A DNA stretch of 12,663 bases from a virus: the UHGV virus genome UHGV-0172014; one strand, written 5' to 3'. Under the pieces are notes generated by a model. The model was not told the DNA's origin. It saw nothing but the letters and a program-made list of their open reading frames with translations, and made no database searches. Position numbers and translations under genes: made by a program. Numbering within the stretch: the first letter of the stretch is position 1; every line of letters begins with the position of its first letter. Of the stretch, positions 2,657 to 10,605 are shown one piece after another.

Positions 2657-3349
2657 TTAATTATGTCTCTTAAGGGTTTGCGACTGACTGATTAAGACCT
2701 TTCCAAAGACCATGAATCGGTGTTCGTTTTCGCTAGTAATTCCCCATTCACGGTAAATCTGGTTATCAGAAATCACCAGCAGTTTGTCAGGAATCATTTG
2801 AAGTCTTTTAACGTATATTTTGTCATCAAAACCAAAGACATATATACCATCACCATCAAACTGATTGATGCTGACATCGACGAAGATGAGATCTCCTGGC
2901 TCAATGGTTGGACACATACTGTCCCCACGAACGTTGATAACTTTGATGTGATTGGCTGGTCGTCCGCCGAACATTGATACAGCATTATCAGTTCTGTATT
3001 CGATGGCATGAATCACATCAATGACATCACCGCCCTGGATAAGGCCATTTCCCGCACTGGCACTGATATCCAGCATTTCAATACGGAACACATCCTTCAC
3101 CTGCGCAACATCCTCATTATTACTGTTTTTATATACAGTATTACTTTTGAGGGCAGAGGTAAAGAGATCAGCAATATCAACACCTAAGCTCTTGGCAATA
3201 TTACTCAGTGTTTGTTCGGTAAATTGTTTCTGCTTACCCGTTTCTAAGCGCGAGATGTTCGCCGCATCTACTCCTATTGCTTCAGCGAGATCGGCGATTT
3301 TCATGTTCTTCGCTTGGCGAAGTTGTCTGACTCGGTTTCCTATGTTCAT
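2657..3349 (-). CDS. cI: CI-type prophage repressor (N-terminal HTH_XRE plus C-terminal S24 LexA-like autopeptidase)
   Basis: N-terminal HTH (RQAKNMKIADLAEAIGVDAANISRLETGKQ) and C-terminal S24 catalytic motifs (VRGDSMCPTIEPGD with Ser; YVKRL with Lys); divergent from a cro-like gene. No SD before the ATG at 3347-3349, consistent with a leaderless mRNA as in lambda cI. Confidence 0.9.
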   Translation of the reverse strand: MNIGNRVRQLRQAKNMKIADLAEAIGVDAANISRLETGKQKQFTEQTLSNIAKSLGVDIADLFTSALKSNTVYKNSNNEDVAQVKDVFRIEMLDISASAGNGLIQGGDVIDVIHAIEYRTDNAVSMFGGRPANHIKVINVRGDSMCPTIEPGDLIFVDVSINQFDGDGIYVFGFDDKIYVKRLQMIPDKLLVISDNQIYREWGITSENEHRFMVFGKVLISQSQTLKRHN

Positions 3350-3446
3350 GCGTTTATTACATTTCTTTATTGCGTGATAAGCAAATCAACTTGCGCAAAA
3401 TACTTGCGTGAAATAACATGCATAACGCGCAATATTTGGAGGATAT
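3350..3446. promoter_or_regulatory. OR-like divergent promoter/operator region between cI and cro
   Basis: Repeated operator-like sites: TTGCGTGATAAGCAA (3370-3384), palindrome TTGCGCAA (3391-3398), TTGCGTG (3404-3410), and on the reverse strand TTGCGCGTTATGCA (3419-3432). A possible rightward promoter is TTGCGC (3391-3396), 17-nt spacer, TAACAT (3414-3419); promoter hexamers are tentative. Confidence 0.6.
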
Positions 3447-3707
3447 ATGCAATCACCATTACGAAATGTGCGTAAGGCGCATTGTTTCACTTTGCAGCAT
3501 GTTGCTGCGGGTGTTCAAGTCAATCCAGCGACGTTGAGTCGTATTGAGAGGCTGGAGCAGATTCCATCTATCGAGCTTGCAGAACGTTTAGCCAATTTTT
3601 TTAAGGGTGAAATCAGCGAAATGCAGATTCTTTATCCGGCACGTTTTCAATCTAGCCAAAACCAGAATGGGTTTAAACCACAGGAACAGGAGGTGAACCG
3701 TGGGTAA
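3447..3707 (+). CDS. cro: Cro-like HTH regulator (86 aa)
   Basis: ATG at 3447 with GGAGGA SD; HTH segment (AHCFTLQHVAAGVQVNPATLSRIERLEQ); divergent from cI across the operator cluster. Confidence 0.75.
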   Translation: MQSPLRNVRKAHCFTLQHVAAGVQVNPATLSRIERLEQIPSIELAERLANFFKGEISEMQILYPARFQSSQNQNGFKPQEQEVNRG

Positions 3708-4251
3708 GCATCACTGGAAAGTAGACAAACAGCCTGAGTGGTACGTGAAAGCTGTCAGAAAAACTATCGCAGCGTTGCCGGGGGGTTACGCTGAAGCTGC
3801 TGACTGGCTGGATGTAACAGAGAACGCATTATTTAACCGCCTTCGTGCCGATGGCGATCAGATTTTCCCGCTGGGATGGGCAATGATTTTGCAACGTGCT
3901 GGTGGAACTCACTTCATTGCTGATGCTGTGGCGCAGTCTGCAAATGGCGTCTTTGTGTCTCTTCCTGACGTCGAGGATGTGGACAACGCCGATATTAACC
4001 AGCGTCTGCTGGAAGTCATTGAACAGATCGGCAGTTATTCAAAACAGATTCGTTCAGCAATCGAAGACGGTGTAGTGGAACCGCATGAGAAGACAGCAAT
4101 TAATGACGAGCTCTACCTCTCAATTTCGAAGCTGCAGGAGCATGCAGCACTGGTCTACAAAATCTTTTGCATTTCAGAAAGTAATGACGCCCGCGAGTGT
4201 GCAGCTCCGGGCGCCGTGGCGTGTCGTGACTGTGGAGAAACTAACGCATGA
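3700..4251 (+). CDS. Early regulatory protein in the CII/YdaT position (183 aa); family uncertain
   Basis: GTG start at 3700 with AGGAGG SD (6-nt spacer), overlapping the cro stop; position immediately after cro matches CII/YdaT-like genes of lambdoid prophages. Functional call is positional and from memory. Confidence 0.55.
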
Positions 4252-4586
4252 ACAGTTTAACAACACACTACCGTCGCTCGCAACTGATTGCGCTTCCTGT
4301 ACCGGGTGGAAAAGCGAAGGTGGAGTATTGCTATGCAGTTAATGTACCAGGTGACAGGGAAATTGTAACCCACAGCTTTGCTGAGTGGGCTGTGGGTGAT
4401 TTCAACCGGCAGAAGGAGACAGTCCTTTGCGACAAGTTAACCGCTGGTTCAAAGATCACTACGGAGTGCCCGTCAGAGTCATTCGTTGGGAGCCGGAAAC
4501 ACAACGAGTTATCTACCTCCGCGAAGGCTATGAGCATGAGTGCTTCAGCCCGCTCGAACAGTTTCGTCGTAAATTCAGGGAAATAG
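4248..4586 (+). CDS. Hypothetical protein; possibly frameshifted (protein-like N-terminal ~57 codons, low-complexity tail)
   Basis: ATG at 4248 overlaps the upstream stop (ATGA). The first ~57 residues look protein-like; the remainder (…[22 protein letters not shown]) looks like off-frame translation, while a different frame becomes protein-like from about 4400. Confidence 0.35.
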
Positions 4587-4606
4587 AGGTCGGTCATGAG
4601 CACTAA
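4427..4606 (+). CDS. Small ORF (59 aa) in an alternative frame, TTG start with AAGGAG SD; or the C-terminal part of a frameshifted gene
   Basis: Frame is open from 4400 to the TAA at 4604-4606; TTG at 4427 sits 8 nt after AAGGAG (4413-4418). Translation (…[58 protein letters not shown]) is compositionally protein-like. Not in the ORF track (non-ATG start). Confidence 0.35.
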
Positions 4607-5537
4607 ATTAACCGGCTATGTATGGGATGGTTGCGCTGCATCAGGCATGAAATTATCCAGCGTGGCAATTATGGCCCGCCTGGCTGATTTCAGTAATGAC
4701 GAAGGTGTGTGCTGGCCATCAATTGAAACTATTGCCCGTCAGATTGGCGCGGGGATGAGTACCGTCAGGACGGCTATCGCACGGCTGGAAGCAGAAGGCT
4801 GGTTAACGCGTAAGGCGCGTCGCCAGGGTAACCGCAATGCGTCGAATGTTTATCAGCTTAACGTTGCGAAGCTTCAGGCAGCGGCATTTTCTCAACTGTC
4901 AGATTCTGACCCGTCAAAATCTGACGCATCAAAATCTGACCCGTCAAAATTTGATGCGTCGAAATCTGGCAAAAAAGCGGGTTTTCACCCGTCAGAATCT
5001 GGCGGGGATCCGTCAGTAAAATCAAAACATGATCCGTCAGATAAAAAACCTTCTCGTCCGGACGCTTCGCAACCGGACACGCAGACGGATGAACAGGATT
5101 TTTTAACTCGCCATCCTGATGCGGTTGTATTCAGCCCTAAAAAGCGCCAGTGGGGAACGCAGGATGATTTGACCTGCGCACAGTGGCTCTGGAAAAAAAT
5201 CATCGCCCTGTACGAGCAAGCCGCCGAATGTGACGGCGAGGTGGTTCGTCCCAAAGAACCGAACTGGACAGCCTGGGCAAACGAAATTCGCCTGATGTGT
5301 GTGCAGGATGGTCGTACTCACAAACAAATCTGCGAGATGTACAGCCGCGTCAGCCGCGATCCGTTCTGGTGCCGTAACGTGCTCAGCCCGTCGAAGTTGC
5401 GGGAAAAATGGGATGAGCTTTCCCTGCGCTTATCACCGTCCGTCAGCACGTACACCGAAAAACGCGAAGACCCGTACTTCAAATCCAGTTACGACAACGT
5501 GGACTACAGCCAGATCCCGGCAGGATTCAGGGGGTGA
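4596..5537 (+). CDS. Replication initiator (O-like: N-terminal HTH DNA-binding domain, low-complexity linker, C-terminal domain)
   Basis: ATG at 4596 with GAGG SD; N-terminal winged-helix/HTH-like region (SVAIMARLADFSNDEGVCWPSIETIARQIGAGMSTVRTAIARLEAEGWL); a tandem repeat array inside the linker, as the lambda origin lies inside gene O; position after the cro/CII block. Confidence 0.65.
   Translation: MSTKLTGYVWDGCAASGMKLSSVAIMARLADFSNDEGVCWPSIETIARQIGAGMSTVRTAIARLEAEGWLTRKARRQGNRNASNVYQLNVAKLQAAAFSQLSDSDPSKSDASKSDPSKFDASKSGKKAGFHPSESGGDPSVKSKHDPSDKKPSRPDASQPDTQTDEQDFLTRHPDAVVFSPKKRQWGTQDDLTCAQWLWKKIIALYEQAAECDGEVVRPKEPNWTAWANEIRLMCVQDGRTHKQICEMYSRVSRDPFWCRNVLSPSKLREKWDELSLRLSPSVSTYTEKREDPYFKSSYDNVDYSQIPAGFRG
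4896..5050. repeat. Iteron-like direct repeat array (candidate replication origin) inside the initiator gene
   Basis: Five head-to-tail 15-bp units (CTGTCAGATTCTGAC, CCGTCAAAATCTGAC, GCATCAAAATCTGAC, CCGTCAAAATTTGAT, GCGTCGAAATCTGGC; 4896-4970), then three degenerate copies (CCGTCAGAATCTGGC 4989-5003, CCGTCAGTAAAATC about 5010-5023, CCGTCAGATAAAAAACC 5034-5050) with A-rich tracts (AAAAAAGC, ATAAAAAACC). Confidence 0.6.
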
Positions 5538-5539
5538 TC

Positions 5540-6028
5540 ATGAGTCTTTTGAATGAAGTTCAGAAATTCATTGAAGCCCATCCGGGGTGTACTTCCGGAG
5601 ACATTGCGGATGCTTTTGCAGGTTACTCACGGCAGCGCGTTCTGCAGTCAGCAAGCAAGTTACGTCAGAGTGGGCGTGTGGCTCACCGTTGTGAAGGAGA
5701 TACACGCAGACATTTCCCGCGCCTGACTGAGAGAGCGCAGGAGCCGGAACCACAATCTGTTCGTGAAACCAGACCTGTGCGCAATTTCTATGTCGGCACT
5801 AACGACCCCCGGGTGATTTTGTGCCTGACCCGCCAGGCTGAAGAACTGGAGTCCAGGGGCTTATTCCGTCGAGCTGCAACGGTGTGGATGGAGGCATTCC
5901 GTGAAAGCCACTCCCAGCCAGAACGAAACAATTTTCTGGCGCATCGTGAGCGGTGCTTACGGAAAAGCAGCAAGCGCGCTGCATCGGGTGAAGAGTGGTA
6001 TCTGTCAGGGAATTACGTGGGGGCTTAA
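5540..6028 (+). CDS. Hypothetical regulator; C-terminal region resembles the PerC/Pch family
   Basis: ATG at 5540 with GGGGGTGA SD (track GTG at 5534 overlaps the SD). C-terminal ELESRGLFRRAATVWMEAF...ERNNFLAHRERCL resembles the (E)xxGLWRRAAxRW core I recall for PerC-like prophage regulators; from memory, not searched. Confidence 0.5.
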   Translation: MSLLNEVQKFIEAHPGCTSGDIADAFAGYSRQRVLQSASKLRQSGRVAHRCEGDTRRHFPRLTERAQEPEPQSVRETRPVRNFYVGTNDPRVILCLTRQAEELESRGLFRRAATVWMEAFRESHSQPERNNFLAHRERCLRKSSKRAASGEEWYLSGNYVGA

Positions 6029-6681
6029 TGAGTAATAAATATTGCCAGGCGCTGGTGGAGCTGCGGAACAAACCAGCCCATGAACTGAAGGAAGTGGGCG
6101 ATCAGTGGCGCACGCCGGACAACATTTTCTGGGGAATTAACACCCTGTTTGGCCCGTTTGTTCTGGATCTGTTTACTGATGGTGATAACGCCAAATGTGC
6201 CGCTTATTACACTGCGGAAGACAACGCGCTGGCGCATGACTGGTCAGAACGTCTTGCGGAGCTTAAAGGTGCTGCCTTTGGTAATCCCCCGTACAGCCGC
6301 GCCAGTCAGCATGAGGGGCAATACATCACCGGCATGCGTTACATCATGAAACATGCCAGTGCTATGCGTGATAAAGGCGGGCGCTATGTTTTCCTGATCA
6401 AAGCTGCCACCAGCGAAGTTTGGTGGCCGGAAGATGCAGACCATATTGCTTTTATTCGCGGGCGTATTGGTTTTGAACTGCCAGCCTGGTTTATCCCGAA
6501 GGACGAGAAGCAGGTGCCGACAGGCGCTTTCTTCGCTGGTGCTATTGCTGTTTTCGACAAGACCTGGAAGGGACCGGCAATCAGCTACATCGGGCGCGAT
6601 GAACTTGAGGCATGTGGTGAGGCCTTTCTGGCGCAGGTTCGCCAGCAGGCGGAAAAACTGGTCAGGGAGATGGCGGCATGA
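6028..6681 (+). CDS. Phage DNA N-6-adenine methyltransferase (Dam-like)
   Basis: ATG at 6028 overlapping the upstream stop (TAATG), GTGGGGG SD; catalytic NPPY motif (AAFGNPPYSRAS); size and position typical of lambdoid phage Dam methyltransferases. Confidence 0.8.
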   Translation: MSNKYCQALVELRNKPAHELKEVGDQWRTPDNIFWGINTLFGPFVLDLFTDGDNAKCAAYYTAEDNALAHDWSERLAELKGAAFGNPPYSRASQHEGQYITGMRYIMKHASAMRDKGGRYVFLIKAATSEVWWPEDADHIAFIRGRIGFELPAWFIPKDEKQVPTGAFFAGAIAVFDKTWKGPAISYIGRDELEACGEAFLAQVRQQAEKLVREMAA

Positions 6682-8226: not shown

Positions 8227-9216
8227 GTGAGAGCACTACTGACCCCTGAAATTGCCCCGCGTATGGGGATCGTATTGTTCAGGCCAGGTTCAGAGCTGAT
8301 GCCCCTGTTTATGCAGGGGCGTGTCCTGCTGGAGCCTGAGCCGGAGCGTTATTCATCTTTCGCCAGTGGTGCCGTTCCGGCGGCATCACAACCGCTGGCG
8401 GATGATCCTGCCGTTCGGGCCGTGTTCCGCAATGAGGCAGTGATCCGTCGTGCTGGTGGCGTGGAATGTCTTGAAAGCTGGTTACTTCGTGAAAAAGGCT
8501 GTCAGTGGCCTCACTCCGACTGGCACAGCGAAAACATGACCACAACGCGCCATGCGCCGGGCGCAATCCGTCTGTGCTGGCACTGCGATAACCAGTTGCG
8601 TGACCAGTTCACGGAACGGCTGGAATCAATGGCAACGGATAACTGTGCCCGCTGGGTGTTATCTGTTGTGCGCCGTGATCTCGGTTTTGATGATAGTCAC
8701 GTTGTGACAATGCCGGAACTGTGCTGGTGGCTGGTTCGTAATGACCTGGCGGATGCCTTACCGGAAAGTGCAGCCCGTAAGGCACTGAGATTACCGAAGC
8801 CTGTTGTGCCGTCTGTTACCCGGGAAAGTGACCTTGTGCCTTCGGTTCCTGCCACCAGCATCATCCAGGATAAGGCGAAAAAGGTGCTGGCGCTGAAAGT
8901 GGATCCGGAGTCGCCGGAGTCTTTTATGTTACGCCCAAAACGTCGCCGCTGGGTTAATGAAAAGTACACGCGCTGGGTTAAGACACAGCCGTGTGCATGT
9001 TGTGGAAAGCCTGCTGATGATCCCCACCACCTGATAGGCCACGGTCAGGGGGGAATGGGTACAAAAGCGCATGACCTCTTTGTGTTGCCTTTGTGCAGAA
9101 AGCATCACGACGAACTGCATGCGGATACCGTGGCATTTGAAGAGAAGTATGGCTCTCAGCTGGAGCTGATATTTCGTTTTATCGATCGTGCGCTGGCAAC
9201 TGGCGTACTGGGCTGA
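8227..9216 (+). CDS. DUF968-like phage protein with a C-terminal Cys/His (HNH-like) cluster
   Basis: In-frame GTG at 8227 has a GAGG SD 5 nt upstream; the track start GTG 8221 overlaps that SD. C-terminal CACCGKPADDPHHLIGHGQGG...LPLCRKHHDELHAD; position between the KilA-N gene and Q matches DUF968 proteins of lambdoid prophages (family from memory). Confidence 0.65.
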   Translation: MRALLTPEIAPRMGIVLFRPGSELMPLFMQGRVLLEPEPERYSSFASGAVPAASQPLADDPAVRAVFRNEAVIRRAGGVECLESWLLREKGCQWPHSDWHSENMTTTRHAPGAIRLCWHCDNQLRDQFTERLESMATDNCARWVLSVVRRDLGFDDSHVVTMPELCWWLVRNDLADALPESAARKALRLPKPVVPSVTRESDLVPSVPATSIIQDKAKKVLALKVDPESPESFMLRPKRRRWVNEKYTRWVKTQPCACCGKPADDPHHLIGHGQGGMGTKAHDLFVLPLCRKHHDELHADTVAFEEKYGSQLELIFRFIDRALATGVLG

Positions 9217-9233
9217 TGTTGTGGAGAAAGTTG

Positions 9234-9575
9234 ATGCGTGACATGTATGAAGTTTTGGACCGCTGGGGAGCATGGGCTGCAGCAGATAACAGTAGTGTGG
9301 ACTGGCAGCCGATAGCAGCAGGCTTCAAGGGGCTTTTACCTCATGGTAAAAAAACACGTCTCCAGTGTGATGATGATGAAGGGATCATGATAGACGGTTG
9401 TGTCGCACGGTTACGTAAATATAAACAAGAAGAATATGAGCTAATAATTGCTCACTTTGTTATTGGTATTTCATTACGCGCCATTGCGAAGAAGCGTAAG
9501 TGTTCTGATGGGACAATTAGAAAAGATATGCAAACAGCATTAGGTTTTGTTAGTGGTGTGCTATCAATGCTATGA
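9234..9575 (+). CDS. Q: Late-gene antitermination protein Q (short QuuD-like type)
   Basis: ATG at 9234 with GGAG SD (7-nt spacer); alternative in-frame ATG at 9216 overlaps the upstream stop. MRDMYEVLDRWGAWAA...AAGFKGLLP...CSDGTIRK resembles the small Q antiterminators of DLP12-type prophages as I recall them; position just before the lysis region. Confidence 0.7.
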   Translation: MRDMYEVLDRWGAWAAADNSSVDWQPIAAGFKGLLPHGKKTRLQCDDDEGIMIDGCVARLRKYKQEEYELIIAHFVIGISLRAIAKKRKCSDGTIRKDMQTALGFVSGVLSML

Positions 9576-9601: not shown

Positions 9602-10345
9602 CTAAATTACTTGGATGATGAAAGAAACAATCAATGTTGCTAAACCACCAATAGCAGATACTTTAAATTCCGAACCACGAAATACCATCTTCCCATTGAC
9701 CTTTATATTATTTGCAATGAATGGTGATATTCCAACGGCCGCACTCATGAAATATAAAGAAGAAATCATTTTCTTTTGAAACTCATTCAAGTCTGGCATT
9801 AACAGTGTAATTGATAAAAAAATACAAAAACTTAAAAATCCAATAATAGCAGTGACAATTAATTTCCAATTCATTGGGGTACCTATAGTAAATCCATCGA
9901 TTGGCAATTTTCGAGACTCAAATTCCGCAATAATAGCGGTGTAAATATCTTTTGATGAGTACTTTTTAATGATTCTTTGGATGTTTGATAGACCATCTTT
10001 GCTATACAATACAATATTGTCTGGATCAATTTTTAGGTGTTTAATGTTTGCCACCATCATGTCGTAGTATTCTAAATAAGTTTCCAGAACTGCTCGACAG
10101 TCTCCAGCTAACGAAATGGCGAATGTCTTATTGTCATCCAGTTTACATAAATCTACTTTTTGAACTAACTTAACAGCGGTATTAAAATATTTTGAAGCAT
10201 GCTGCTGAACTTCATGTAGGTCAGCAAGGTTTGATATACCGCCATTACGCACGTATGGCTGAATACCACGTAAAAATCTTTCCTTTGCAGAAGTCAGCTC
10301 CGACGTTACTTCGTCGGGGCTGATCTGAAACACATCATTATTCAT
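9602..10345 (-). CDS. Hypothetical membrane-anchored protein (247 aa): soluble N-terminal domain plus 2-3 C-terminal TM helices
   Basis: ATG at 10343-10345 overlapping the upstream stop (ATGA coupling). Hydrophobic segments WKLIVTAIIGFLSFCIFLSITLL, ISSLYFMSAAVGISPFIANNI and VSAIGGLATLIVSFIIQVI; very AT-rich; no family recognised. Confidence 0.7.
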   Translation of the reverse strand: MNNDVFQISPDEVTSELTSAKERFLRGIQPYVRNGGISNLADLHEVQQHASKYFNTAVKLVQKVDLCKLDDNKTFAISLAGDCRAVLETYLEYYDMMVANIKHLKIDPDNIVLYSKDGLSNIQRIIKKYSSKDIYTAIIAEFESRKLPIDGFTIGTPMNWKLIVTAIIGFLSFCIFLSITLLMPDLNEFQKKMISSLYFMSAAVGISPFIANNIKVNGKMVFRGSEFKVSAIGGLATLIVSFIIQVI

Positions 10346-10605
10346 TTTTGTTTTGGTGCCAGCATTCTTAATGCAGTGTTAAGATCAGAGTTGTCCACAC
10401 TTTCAGTGATTAAGAATTGGGTATTGGGAACATGACGGCTGATAATGCCTTGGAGCATGCTACGACTTATAACTTTACCACTTTGAAGCGCGGAGTTAAT
10501 GTCATTTTGTATCAAAGTGATTTCACGCTCGGTACAGGGGAAACCCCACCGAGTAACATTTGCATATTCACCAATTTTTTTCTTAAATTCTAGGTAGTTA
10601 CTCAT
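10342..10605 (-). CDS. Hypothetical small soluble protein (87 aa), first gene of the two-gene cassette
   Basis: ATG at 10603-10605 with AAGGAG SD (7-nt spacer); slightly basic, no TM segment; translationally coupled to the downstream membrane protein; AT-rich. Confidence 0.65.
   Translation of the reverse strand: MSNYLEFKKKIGEYANVTRWGFPCTEREITLIQNDINSALQSGKVISRSMLQGIISRHVPNTQFLITESVDNSDLNTALRMLAPKQK

Follow-up and report, generated by a model that had tools for sequence, protein, structure and literature searches.

A probable replication origin inside the O-like initiator gene of an SfIV/SfII-type lambdoid prophage

The window analyzed here is the whole 12,663-nucleotide stretch of UHGV virus genome UHGV-0172014, and it covers the early-right region of an SfIV/SfII/SfV-type lambdoid prophage. 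Its replication-initiator gene (4596 to 5537) encodes an O-like protein of 313 amino acids (aa). Between the parts coding for the N-terminal DNA-binding domain (N-domain) and the C-terminal domain (C-domain), this gene carries an array of iterons followed by an AT-rich stretch. Comparison with related genes indicates that the segment at ~4890 to 5078 probably serves this SfIV/SfII-type lambdoid prophage as its origin of replication, situated within the initiator gene itself. The features of the gene are as follows.

4596-5537, plus strand: replication-initiator gene, 313 aa, O-like (open reading frame [ORF] list, translation, PHROG 391)
4596-4892, plus strand: region coding for the winged-helix N-domain, aa 1-99 (Pfam HTH_36, AlphaFold2 [AF2] model)
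4890-5078: block under DNA-level constraint, the proposed origin, codons 99-161
4898-4910: iteron core 1, GTCAGATTCTGAC, a perfect 6+1+6 palindrome
4913-4925: iteron core 2, GTCAAAATCTGAC
4928-4940: iteron core 3, ATCAAAATCTGAC
4943-4955: iteron core 4, GTCAAAATTTGAT
4958-4970: iteron core 5, GTCGAAATCTGGC
4991-5003: iteron core 6, isolated, GTCAGAATCTGGC, with GGTTTTCACCC just before it
5007-5054: downstream common origin element, with two GATCCGTCAG half-sites 24 bp apart and GATC at 5007 and 5031
5012 and 5036: half-sites GTCAG(T/A), each with GATCC directly ahead
5094-5438, plus strand: region coding for the lambda-O-type C-domain, aa 167-281 (BLASTP, hhalign)
5508-5534, plus strand: region coding for the tail SQIPAGFRG, aa 305-313 (match to the Escherichia coli DnaT C-terminus)

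Five 13-bp near-palindromic cores (GTCARAWTCTGAC) occupy positions 4898 to 4970 at a pitch of exactly 15 bp; the family consensus is approximately GTCA(A/G)A(A/T)TCTGAC, and the 2-bp spacer between units varies. The repeats lie within the ORF at 4596 to 5537, where they encode SDSDPSKSDASKSDPSKFDASKSG..., and the cores span aa 101 to 136 of the linker joining the two domains. Tandem Repeats Finder reported the array at 4905 to 4968 (period 15, 4.3 copies, 81% matches, score 86), with a score of 100 when it was read at period 30, and a repeat search returned six in-register copies with spacings of 15, 15, 15, 15, and 33 bp. The motif TCARAWTCTG, with up to one mismatch, occurs 14 times in the window versus 3.8 times expected, a count reached by 0 of 200 shuffles, and 11 of the 14 matches fall in 4899 to 5002. 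No second cluster of the iteron motif was found in the window or in the rest of 68 related loci, and in those loci the density of the core motif was 11.2 per kb in the linker regions versus 0.04 per kb elsewhere (~280-fold).

An earlier, sequence-only reading of the window had described five perfect-phase 15-bp direct repeats in this gene, encoding a low-complexity Ser/Asp/Pro/Lys linker and followed by three degenerate copies and A-rich tracts. Tandem Repeats Finder and direct reading both gave the exact spacing, and the translation bears out the linker. The word "perfect" applies to the spacing only: the copies differ from one another, and the three degenerate copies are in fact one good iteron (4991 to 5003) and two half-sites. 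The A-rich tracts are real but modest: 5020 to 5059 is 37.5% GC, the minimum of the gene, and 5015 to 5054 is the least stable 40-mer of the gene yet belongs only to the top ~5% of the window for instability. The element at 5007 to 5054 is a candidate unwinding or helicase-entry region.

For comparison, ~70 Enterobacterales prophage relatives of the N-domain (72% to 100% identity) were collected along with several phages and a small number of distant relatives. Synonymous differences were scored against the reference allele in a codon alignment made from 73 distinct sequences. Mean third-position entropy in four-fold boxes was 0.53 in the linker versus 1.59 in the N-domain (Mann-Whitney p = 6e-12 for the 73 related sequences). 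At conserved residues of the N-domain, third-position entropy was about 1.0 for two-fold and 1.5 to 1.95 for four-fold codons, and it collapsed in codons 99 to 161. Synonymous differences among identical-residue codons amounted to 15.6% in the linker versus 54.8% in the N-domain, whereas amino-acid differences went in the opposite direction (34.2% in the linker versus 16.9% in the N-domain). Synonymous differences drop as amino-acid divergence doubles; together with the frame independence and the covariation described below, this shows selection on the DNA. Conservation at the amino-acid level only, with synonymous drift, was the outcome that the earlier reading had named as speaking against an origin; the opposite was found, with conserved synonymous sites and variable residues.

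The constraint extends over the whole block. Linker codons were fixed at several positions (TCA, 73/73; TCA, 69/69; GAT, 73/73; GTA, 72/73), and several others exchange their residue (S/P/A, S/L, S/T, or S/Q) with the third base invariant. The sixth iteron is conserved in the 73 relatives (TTT for F130 in 71/73, xCA at 133, GAA in 64/73, and TCT in 68/73), as is the element at 5007 to 5054 (GAT in 73/73, CCG in 70/73, TCA/TTA with a fixed third base, and GTA in 72/73). The GATC sites at 5007 to 5010 and 5031 to 5034 were almost invariant in the 73 relatives. A Dam-type methylase gene is located one or two genes 3' of the initiator gene in most relatives; SfIV is without it. The GATC pair and the Dam gene suggest a possible methylation input to initiation. 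A reading of the GATC element as an oriC-like 13-mer was dropped on account of too many mismatches by eye.

The motif is not bound to a reading frame. Phage phiP27, whose N-domain is 60% identical, has array spacings of 15, 15, 33, and 32 bp, and its fifth copy (TGACCCTTCAGAATCTGGAC) is offset by one base, so that it is read in another frame and encodes LTLQNLD instead of PSESG. Each of the distant HTH_36 initiators (34% to 41% identity) has an array of its own directly 3' of the winged-helix part, with pitches that are not multiples of three: 17/22 bp in Thorsellia and 22/23 bp in Phlomobacter. The distant initiator of a metagenomic contig has a pitch of 33/23 bp and the palindrome ACCGGCAGAATCTGCCGGT. 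Among near-identical alleles the number of tandem units ranges from 4 to 7, giving proteins of 308, 313, 318, and 323 aa. This polymorphism of whole 15-bp units is seen even at 98% to 100% identity (L100, L102, L144, L152, L155, and L157 from IMG/VR, and also L005, L006, L008, and L009), and more divergent Klebsiella and E. coli phages likewise differ by whole units. A C-domain profile scan of viral contigs returned only 98% to 100% identical alleles and is informative on copy number only.

The iterons change together with the N-domain. Locus L094 (protein P0037) has an almost identical C-terminal half, a different N-domain variant, and iterons of the type TTGACCCGTCAA at a 15-bp pitch, and L096 (P0093) combines another N-domain variant with GTCCAGAWTCTGGAC, also at a 15-bp pitch. 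SfV orf39 has yet another N-domain, with repeats GTGCAnnnnTTCAC. In all three the iterons are found at the equivalent site within the gene, and L094 and L096 retain the downstream element GATCCGTCAGTA...GATCCGTYAG and the A-run although their iterons differ. Conversely, one and the same N-domain and iteron unit occurs with no fewer than four C-domain classes (lambda-O-like, two Pfam Phg_2220_C sub-types, and the phiP27 type), with the recombination joint just 3' of the conserved block; the neighboring genes vary among relatives. As read from these alignments, the plan is modular: the N-domain and the iterons form a specificity unit, the AT-rich element is shared, and the C-domain can be exchanged. 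Classical studies of lambdoid hybrids reportedly found the same modular pattern for ori-lambda. The C-domain and tail of the window protein also occur with a third N-terminal half, which is unrelated (MSLLMTSQPIVINRDL..., 330 aa), in L159, L175, and L179 (IMG/VR) and in mEp460_4F5 (H15). A proposed covariation of the recognition helix with the Providencia/Proteus iterons (TCTGTY for TCTGAC) was dropped, as the helix-turn-helix residues are unchanged there.

The architecture of the protein follows the same division. Pfam HTH_36 (PF13730) was identified at aa 23 to 70 (E = 4e-11; 42.9 bits versus a cut-off of 25). In an AF2 model built from 44 homologues, the N-domain consists of helices at 3 to 16, 20 to 32, 43 to 50, and 54 to 66, a wing at 70 to 88, and a helix at 90 to 99. 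Residues 103 to 160 are predicted to be disordered (predicted local distance difference test [pLDDT] score below 50), residues 163 to 278 are helical and well predicted (pLDDT about 90), and the tail is poorly predicted. The disordered segment coincides exactly with what the repeats and the AT-rich element encode, and a peptide predicted to be disordered can tolerate a sequence imposed by the DNA. With the N-domain, Foldseek returned MarR-type winged helix-turn-helix proteins, several of them solved on DNA, but with weak scores throughout (best E = 3.7e-3; no match reached 1e-3). MarR-type winged-helix proteins are typically dimeric on palindromic sites, and the N-domain is presumed to be the reader of the iterons. 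Foldseek with the AF2 model gave only generic winged-helix proteins and no match to the C-domain, and sequence searches of the PDB, run with the complete protein as well as with its C-domain and tail, gave only weak MarR-type matches, to the N-domain. The C-domain, in turn, is clearly similar to that of lambda O (BLASTP E = 7e-26; hhalign probability 99.65% with 41% identity to residues 172 to 274; 39% in tblastn). No N-terminal match to lambda O, whose N-domain is Pfam Phage_rep_O (PF04492), was found by hhalign. The C-domain also matched the PHROG families "replisome organizer" and "DnaD-like helicase loader" (PHROG 4880/2514) and, in tblastn, Bacillus phage proteins at ~40% over aa 191 to 278.

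The sequence-only reading had compared the position of the iterons to that in lambda gene O, and this comparison is upheld: the array and the AT-rich stretch are collinear with the annotated lambda iterons and AT-rich region, and the C-domains are homologous (lambda O 172 to 274). In both cases the origin or proposed origin is placed between the DNA-binding N-domain and the C-domain, direct repeats with dyad symmetry are followed by an AT-rich stretch (here only a modest one), iterons and N-domain covary across mosaic phages, and the initiator gene belongs to the cro-cII early operon. The origins of phi80 (gene 15) and P22 (gene 18) are likewise located within the initiator gene. There are also differences: (i) the N-domain is HTH_36 and not Phage_rep_O; (ii) lambda has four sites, annotated as 18 bp, at a 20- to 24-bp pitch, whereas here there are five plus one 13-bp cores at a 15-bp pitch; (iii) there is no P gene, and a DnaT-like tail replaces the lambda-type tail (DLTNTDWIYGVDL); and (iv) two conserved GATC sites are present in the AT-rich element. 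The expectation that the replication module differs from the lambda O-P pair was correct with regard to the missing P gene.

Taken as a lambda-like origin, an interpretation supported in silico by the DNA-level constraint, the covariation with the N-domain, the homology of the C-domain to lambda O, and the collinear position, the region could function as follows. The winged-helix N-domain, probably as one dimer per near-palindrome, would bind the five tandem iterons and the isolated sixth. The resulting nucleoprotein array would destabilize the adjoining GATC-containing AT-rich stretch (5015 to 5054), and the region would be transcribed within the early rightward operon, as in lambda. Host DnaB would be brought in by the C-terminal part of the initiator, that is, by the lambda-O-like domain together with the DnaT-like tail. 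We infer binding, unwinding, and origin activity from the sequence comparisons described above.

Several observations weigh against this interpretation. A 15-bp pitch sets the 13-bp sites nearly edge to edge and about 150 degrees apart on the helix, so that neighboring sites may not be able to hold dimers at the same time. The instability of the AT-rich element is no more than moderate (within the top ~5% of the window, at 37.5% GC). DnaA boxes matched the window at chance level, with none in 4314 to 5187, that is, in or beside the array. As RNA, 4890 to 5060 folds strongly (-53.2 kcal/mol; z = -5.63; 0 of 200 shuffles), because the iterons are palindromic. The related sequences are phylogenetically non-independent, so that the p-values overstate the evidence, and the iteron logo and consensus are partly circular since the units were chosen by pattern. 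Finally, no described origin was found in the literature on SfV, SfIV, phiP27, and HTH_36 phage initiators; a paper on a non-lambdoid Stx phage leaves iterons unmentioned.

The main surviving rival, which we regard as unlikely, is that the repeats are protein-binding sites with a purely regulatory role, serving in autoregulation or copy control by the initiator or bound by another phage or host protein, with initiation elsewhere. Plasmid iterons also act in control, and the GATC half-site element persists where the iterons are of another type and may therefore be read by a factor other than the N-domain. However, the array occupies the position of the lambda origin in a protein with a homologous C-domain, the least stable duplex of the gene comes next to it, and there is no other cluster of the motif in the window or the rest of the 68 loci. 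The iterons, moreover, covary with the N-domain and not with the neighboring genes, which differ among relatives. That the constraint is on nucleic-acid structure, such as an mRNA or single-stranded DNA hairpin or a cruciform regulating, for example, translation or processing of the initiator message, is very improbable. The RNA fold just described would fit such a role, and the symmetric half-site changes in L096 are also expected of a hairpin. Yet only one base separates the arms within an iteron, which is not enough to form a hairpin loop, and the long-range pairs of the prediction link different iterons and would be scrambled by changes from 4 to 7 or more units. The iteron type also follows the variant of the DNA-binding domain, and no Rfam family matches in the window.

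It is scarcely credible that the repeats are a mere Ser/Asp/Pro/Lys protein linker grown by slippage, with functionless DNA. The encoded peptide is indeed repetitive and predicted to be disordered, and whole 15-bp units are gained or lost among close alleles, as slippage would produce; but synonymous sites vary far less here than in the structured N-domain, the residues themselves vary more, Ser, Lys, Asp, and Val codons are fixed (TCA, 73/73; GAT, 73/73; GTA, 72/73), and the motif occurs in another frame in phiP27 and at pitches that are not multiples of three in the distant initiators. We give almost no weight to an overlapping gene in another frame or strand as the source of the constraint. 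Mechanical ORFs do exist at 4837 to 5019 (plus strand) and 4858 to 5025 (minus strand). However, of the five alternative frames, four are fully open in 0/73 relatives and one in 11/73; only 36/73 have the start ATG of the plus-strand ORF, and conservation tracks the 15-bp motif and not a three-base period.

An origin of this kind raises the matter of helicase loading. No helicase or loader gene was identified in the window by Pfam and PHROG annotation of the downstream genes, and no P, DnaC, or DnaB homologue comes after the initiator in SfIV, SfV, mEp460, phiNP, KpF5, Flotzy, YeP1, and most other loci; tblastn with lambda P, DnaC, and DnaB gave no match in most related loci. The complete SfIV genome contains no helicase, loader, primase, or polymerase gene, leaving the initiator as its sole recognizable replication gene; SfIV is a UV-inducible plaque-forming phage (PMC3851460). 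The earlier statement that no P/DnaC-like gene follows is therefore true of the window and also of the whole SfIV genome. As the phage has no helicase or loader of its own, host DnaB would have to come via the C-terminal part of the initiator, a route that we propose only tentatively.

The last nine residues of the initiator, SQIPAGFRG, match SQIPPGFRG, with which E. coli DnaT ends (L092, 2979 to 3518), at eight of nine positions, and the general formula of this tail type is D-Y-S-x-I-P-x-G-F-R-G. The GFRx ending is present in 47 of 74 relatives, where it is attached to at least four unrelated C-domain classes; ~23 have instead an alternative ~60-aa module with W-N-x-I-W. This second module (ERDAAYRRF...PS.LE...FA..RWN.IWKE..QR), found in YeP1 (L010, 3300 to 3493), L020, L021, L030, L047, L049, L061, L065, and others, is exclusive of the GFRx tail, occurs only at loci without a downstream loader, and is covered by no family in Pfam. 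With either tail, 0/70 loci have a P, DnaC, or DnaB gene within ~1.9 kb downstream. By contrast, four of the five relatives without both tails have a loader: L050 (P), L056 (DnaC-like), phiP27 (DnaC-like and DnaB), and P0042 (Fisher's exact p = 4e-6 for tail versus loader, with loci that are not independent). In L056, where the DnaC-like gene follows, the initiator ends in ...GGTDDDFI (~3380 to 3403), an acidic-aromatic tip that presumably resembles the C-terminal tip of SSB.

Two comparisons isolate the tail. The Pantoea agglomerans protein P0042 (L098, 3501 to 5170) agrees with the window initiator in N-domain, iteron region, and C-domain but carries a lambda-type tail, DFDNTDWIYG, resembling lambda O DLTNTDWIYGVDL, and a Phage_lambda_P gene lies directly after it, as had been predicted beforehand from the tail; P0042 is a natural tail swap. 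SfV orf39 and phiP27 share a C-domain type, and SfV has the GFRG tail and no loader, whereas in phiP27 the tail is missing and DnaC and DnaB are encoded. The C-terminal tail could accordingly be a portable module that decides helicase recruitment, the DnaT-like version mimicking DnaT and drawing the host DnaB-DnaC or primosome to the origin. We consider this possible but somewhat doubtful, and SQIPAGFRG, as a candidate host-recruitment motif, is a lead and not a result.

The similarity to DnaT is confined in the window protein to the tail, which is at the extreme C-terminus in both proteins; no resemblance beyond it was found, and there was no Pfam or NCBIfam DnaT match. Pfam Phg_2220_C, the other C-domain type of the initiator family, aligns with DnaT residues 101 to 179 (30% identity; E = 4e-5), and annotations such as "primosomal protein I" arise because Phg_2220_C C-domains resemble DnaT. 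On sequence grounds, the label "primosomal protein" is not justified for the window protein as a statement of family membership.

Other replicons share parts of this plan. The initiators pSC101 RepA, R6K pi, and RK2 TrfA are winged helix-turn-helix proteins that act on tandem iterons beside an AT-rich region and use host DnaB/DnaC without a loader of their own, the plan proposed here. Unlike those plasmids, whose iterons flank the initiator gene, the window has its iterons within the initiator coding sequence and a C-domain of lambda O type; Pfam gave no Rep_3 match, and no DnaA boxes are found near the iterons. Bacillus phage SPP1 G38P is an origin-binding protein with binding repeats in its own gene, as proposed here, and the C-domain of the window protein has "replisome organizer" PHROG matches; however, the hosts and N-domains differ, and SPP1 encodes its own loader and helicase.

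The proposed origin is a variant of the textbook arrangement, distinct in its DNA-binding family, iteron geometry, GATC pair, and lack of a P gene. What a specialist might find new, and open to direct testing, is the tail-versus-loader pattern. According to passages of a 2025 paper, "O-only" modules with an O homologue and no helicase or loader occur in 34 of 314 Enterobacteriales lambdoid phages, including LLS, and are called unstudied, their replication not being understood (PMC12315714). The N-domain and iteron region have a DNA-level counterpart in phage LLS (76.8% identity over query positions 1 to 483; H62). The passages on LLS in that paper do not describe an origin, iterons, or C-terminal tails, and these come from the present analysis (PMC12315714).

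The initiator gene is flanked by the genes expected of the early-right region, arranged in the window as follows.

2657-3349, minus strand: cI-like repressor gene
3447-3707: cro-like gene
3700-4251: cII-like gene
4248-4586: DUF4222 gene
5534-6028: PerC-like yfdN
5995-6681: Dam gene, followed in order by LexA-DNA-binding-domain-like, RusA, KilA-N, and DUF968/HNH genes
9216-9575: Q gene, followed by holin and lysis genes

Two ORFs of 247 and 87 aa on the minus strand (9602 to 10605), between Q and holin, had no Pfam match; lambdoid phages often have cargo genes at this site.

The initiator belongs to PHROG 391, "replication initiation O-like" (E = 1e-135), and its RefSeq name is "helix-turn-helix domain-containing protein." Its gene has 97% to 100% DNA identity to genes that go by the names "replication protein O" or "primosomal protein" in SfIV (98.7% for the SfIV copy), SfII, and several E. 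coli phages. At least 80% of the gene is carried by 1,576 of 5,426 complete E. coli genomes, and Shigella serotype-converting phages also carry this allele. A 5'-truncated initiator pseudogene is present beside yfdN in the K-12 CPS-53 remnant and in E. coli O16:H48 (L180, 2502 to 3209, the yfdP-yfdN region); this K-12-lineage pseudogene corresponds to query nucleotides 234 to 942 and has kept the whole iteron array while the first 78 residues of the DNA-binding domain are gone. In two E. coli loci (L062 and L082), the first 79 codons of the initiator are joined in frame to a long unrelated ORF, giving 455 aa in total, presumably through a prophage rearrangement that deleted the origin. Enterobacterial-type prophage sequences with 82% to 89% identity to the N-domain were seen under the names Vagococcus (L019), Chryseobacterium (L043), and Martelella (L048), and a distant bacterial-type initiator (37% identity) was seen in a metagenome-assembled genome titled "Nitrososphaerota" (archaeal; L090). 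These taxon mismatches are likely due to assembly or binning contamination.

The location of the origin provides a handle on the induction and replication of common E. coli and Shigella prophages, and it defines a compact one-gene replicon that could be usable as a tool. Together, the origin map and the tail-loader pattern make the question of O-only replication experimentally tractable. If true, tail mimicry would explain how O-only lambdoid replicons work and would give the C-terminal tail of DnaT a function, and the tail pattern may bear on how DnaT hands DnaB-DnaC to the fork, a step left open by recent structural work (PMC13377028).

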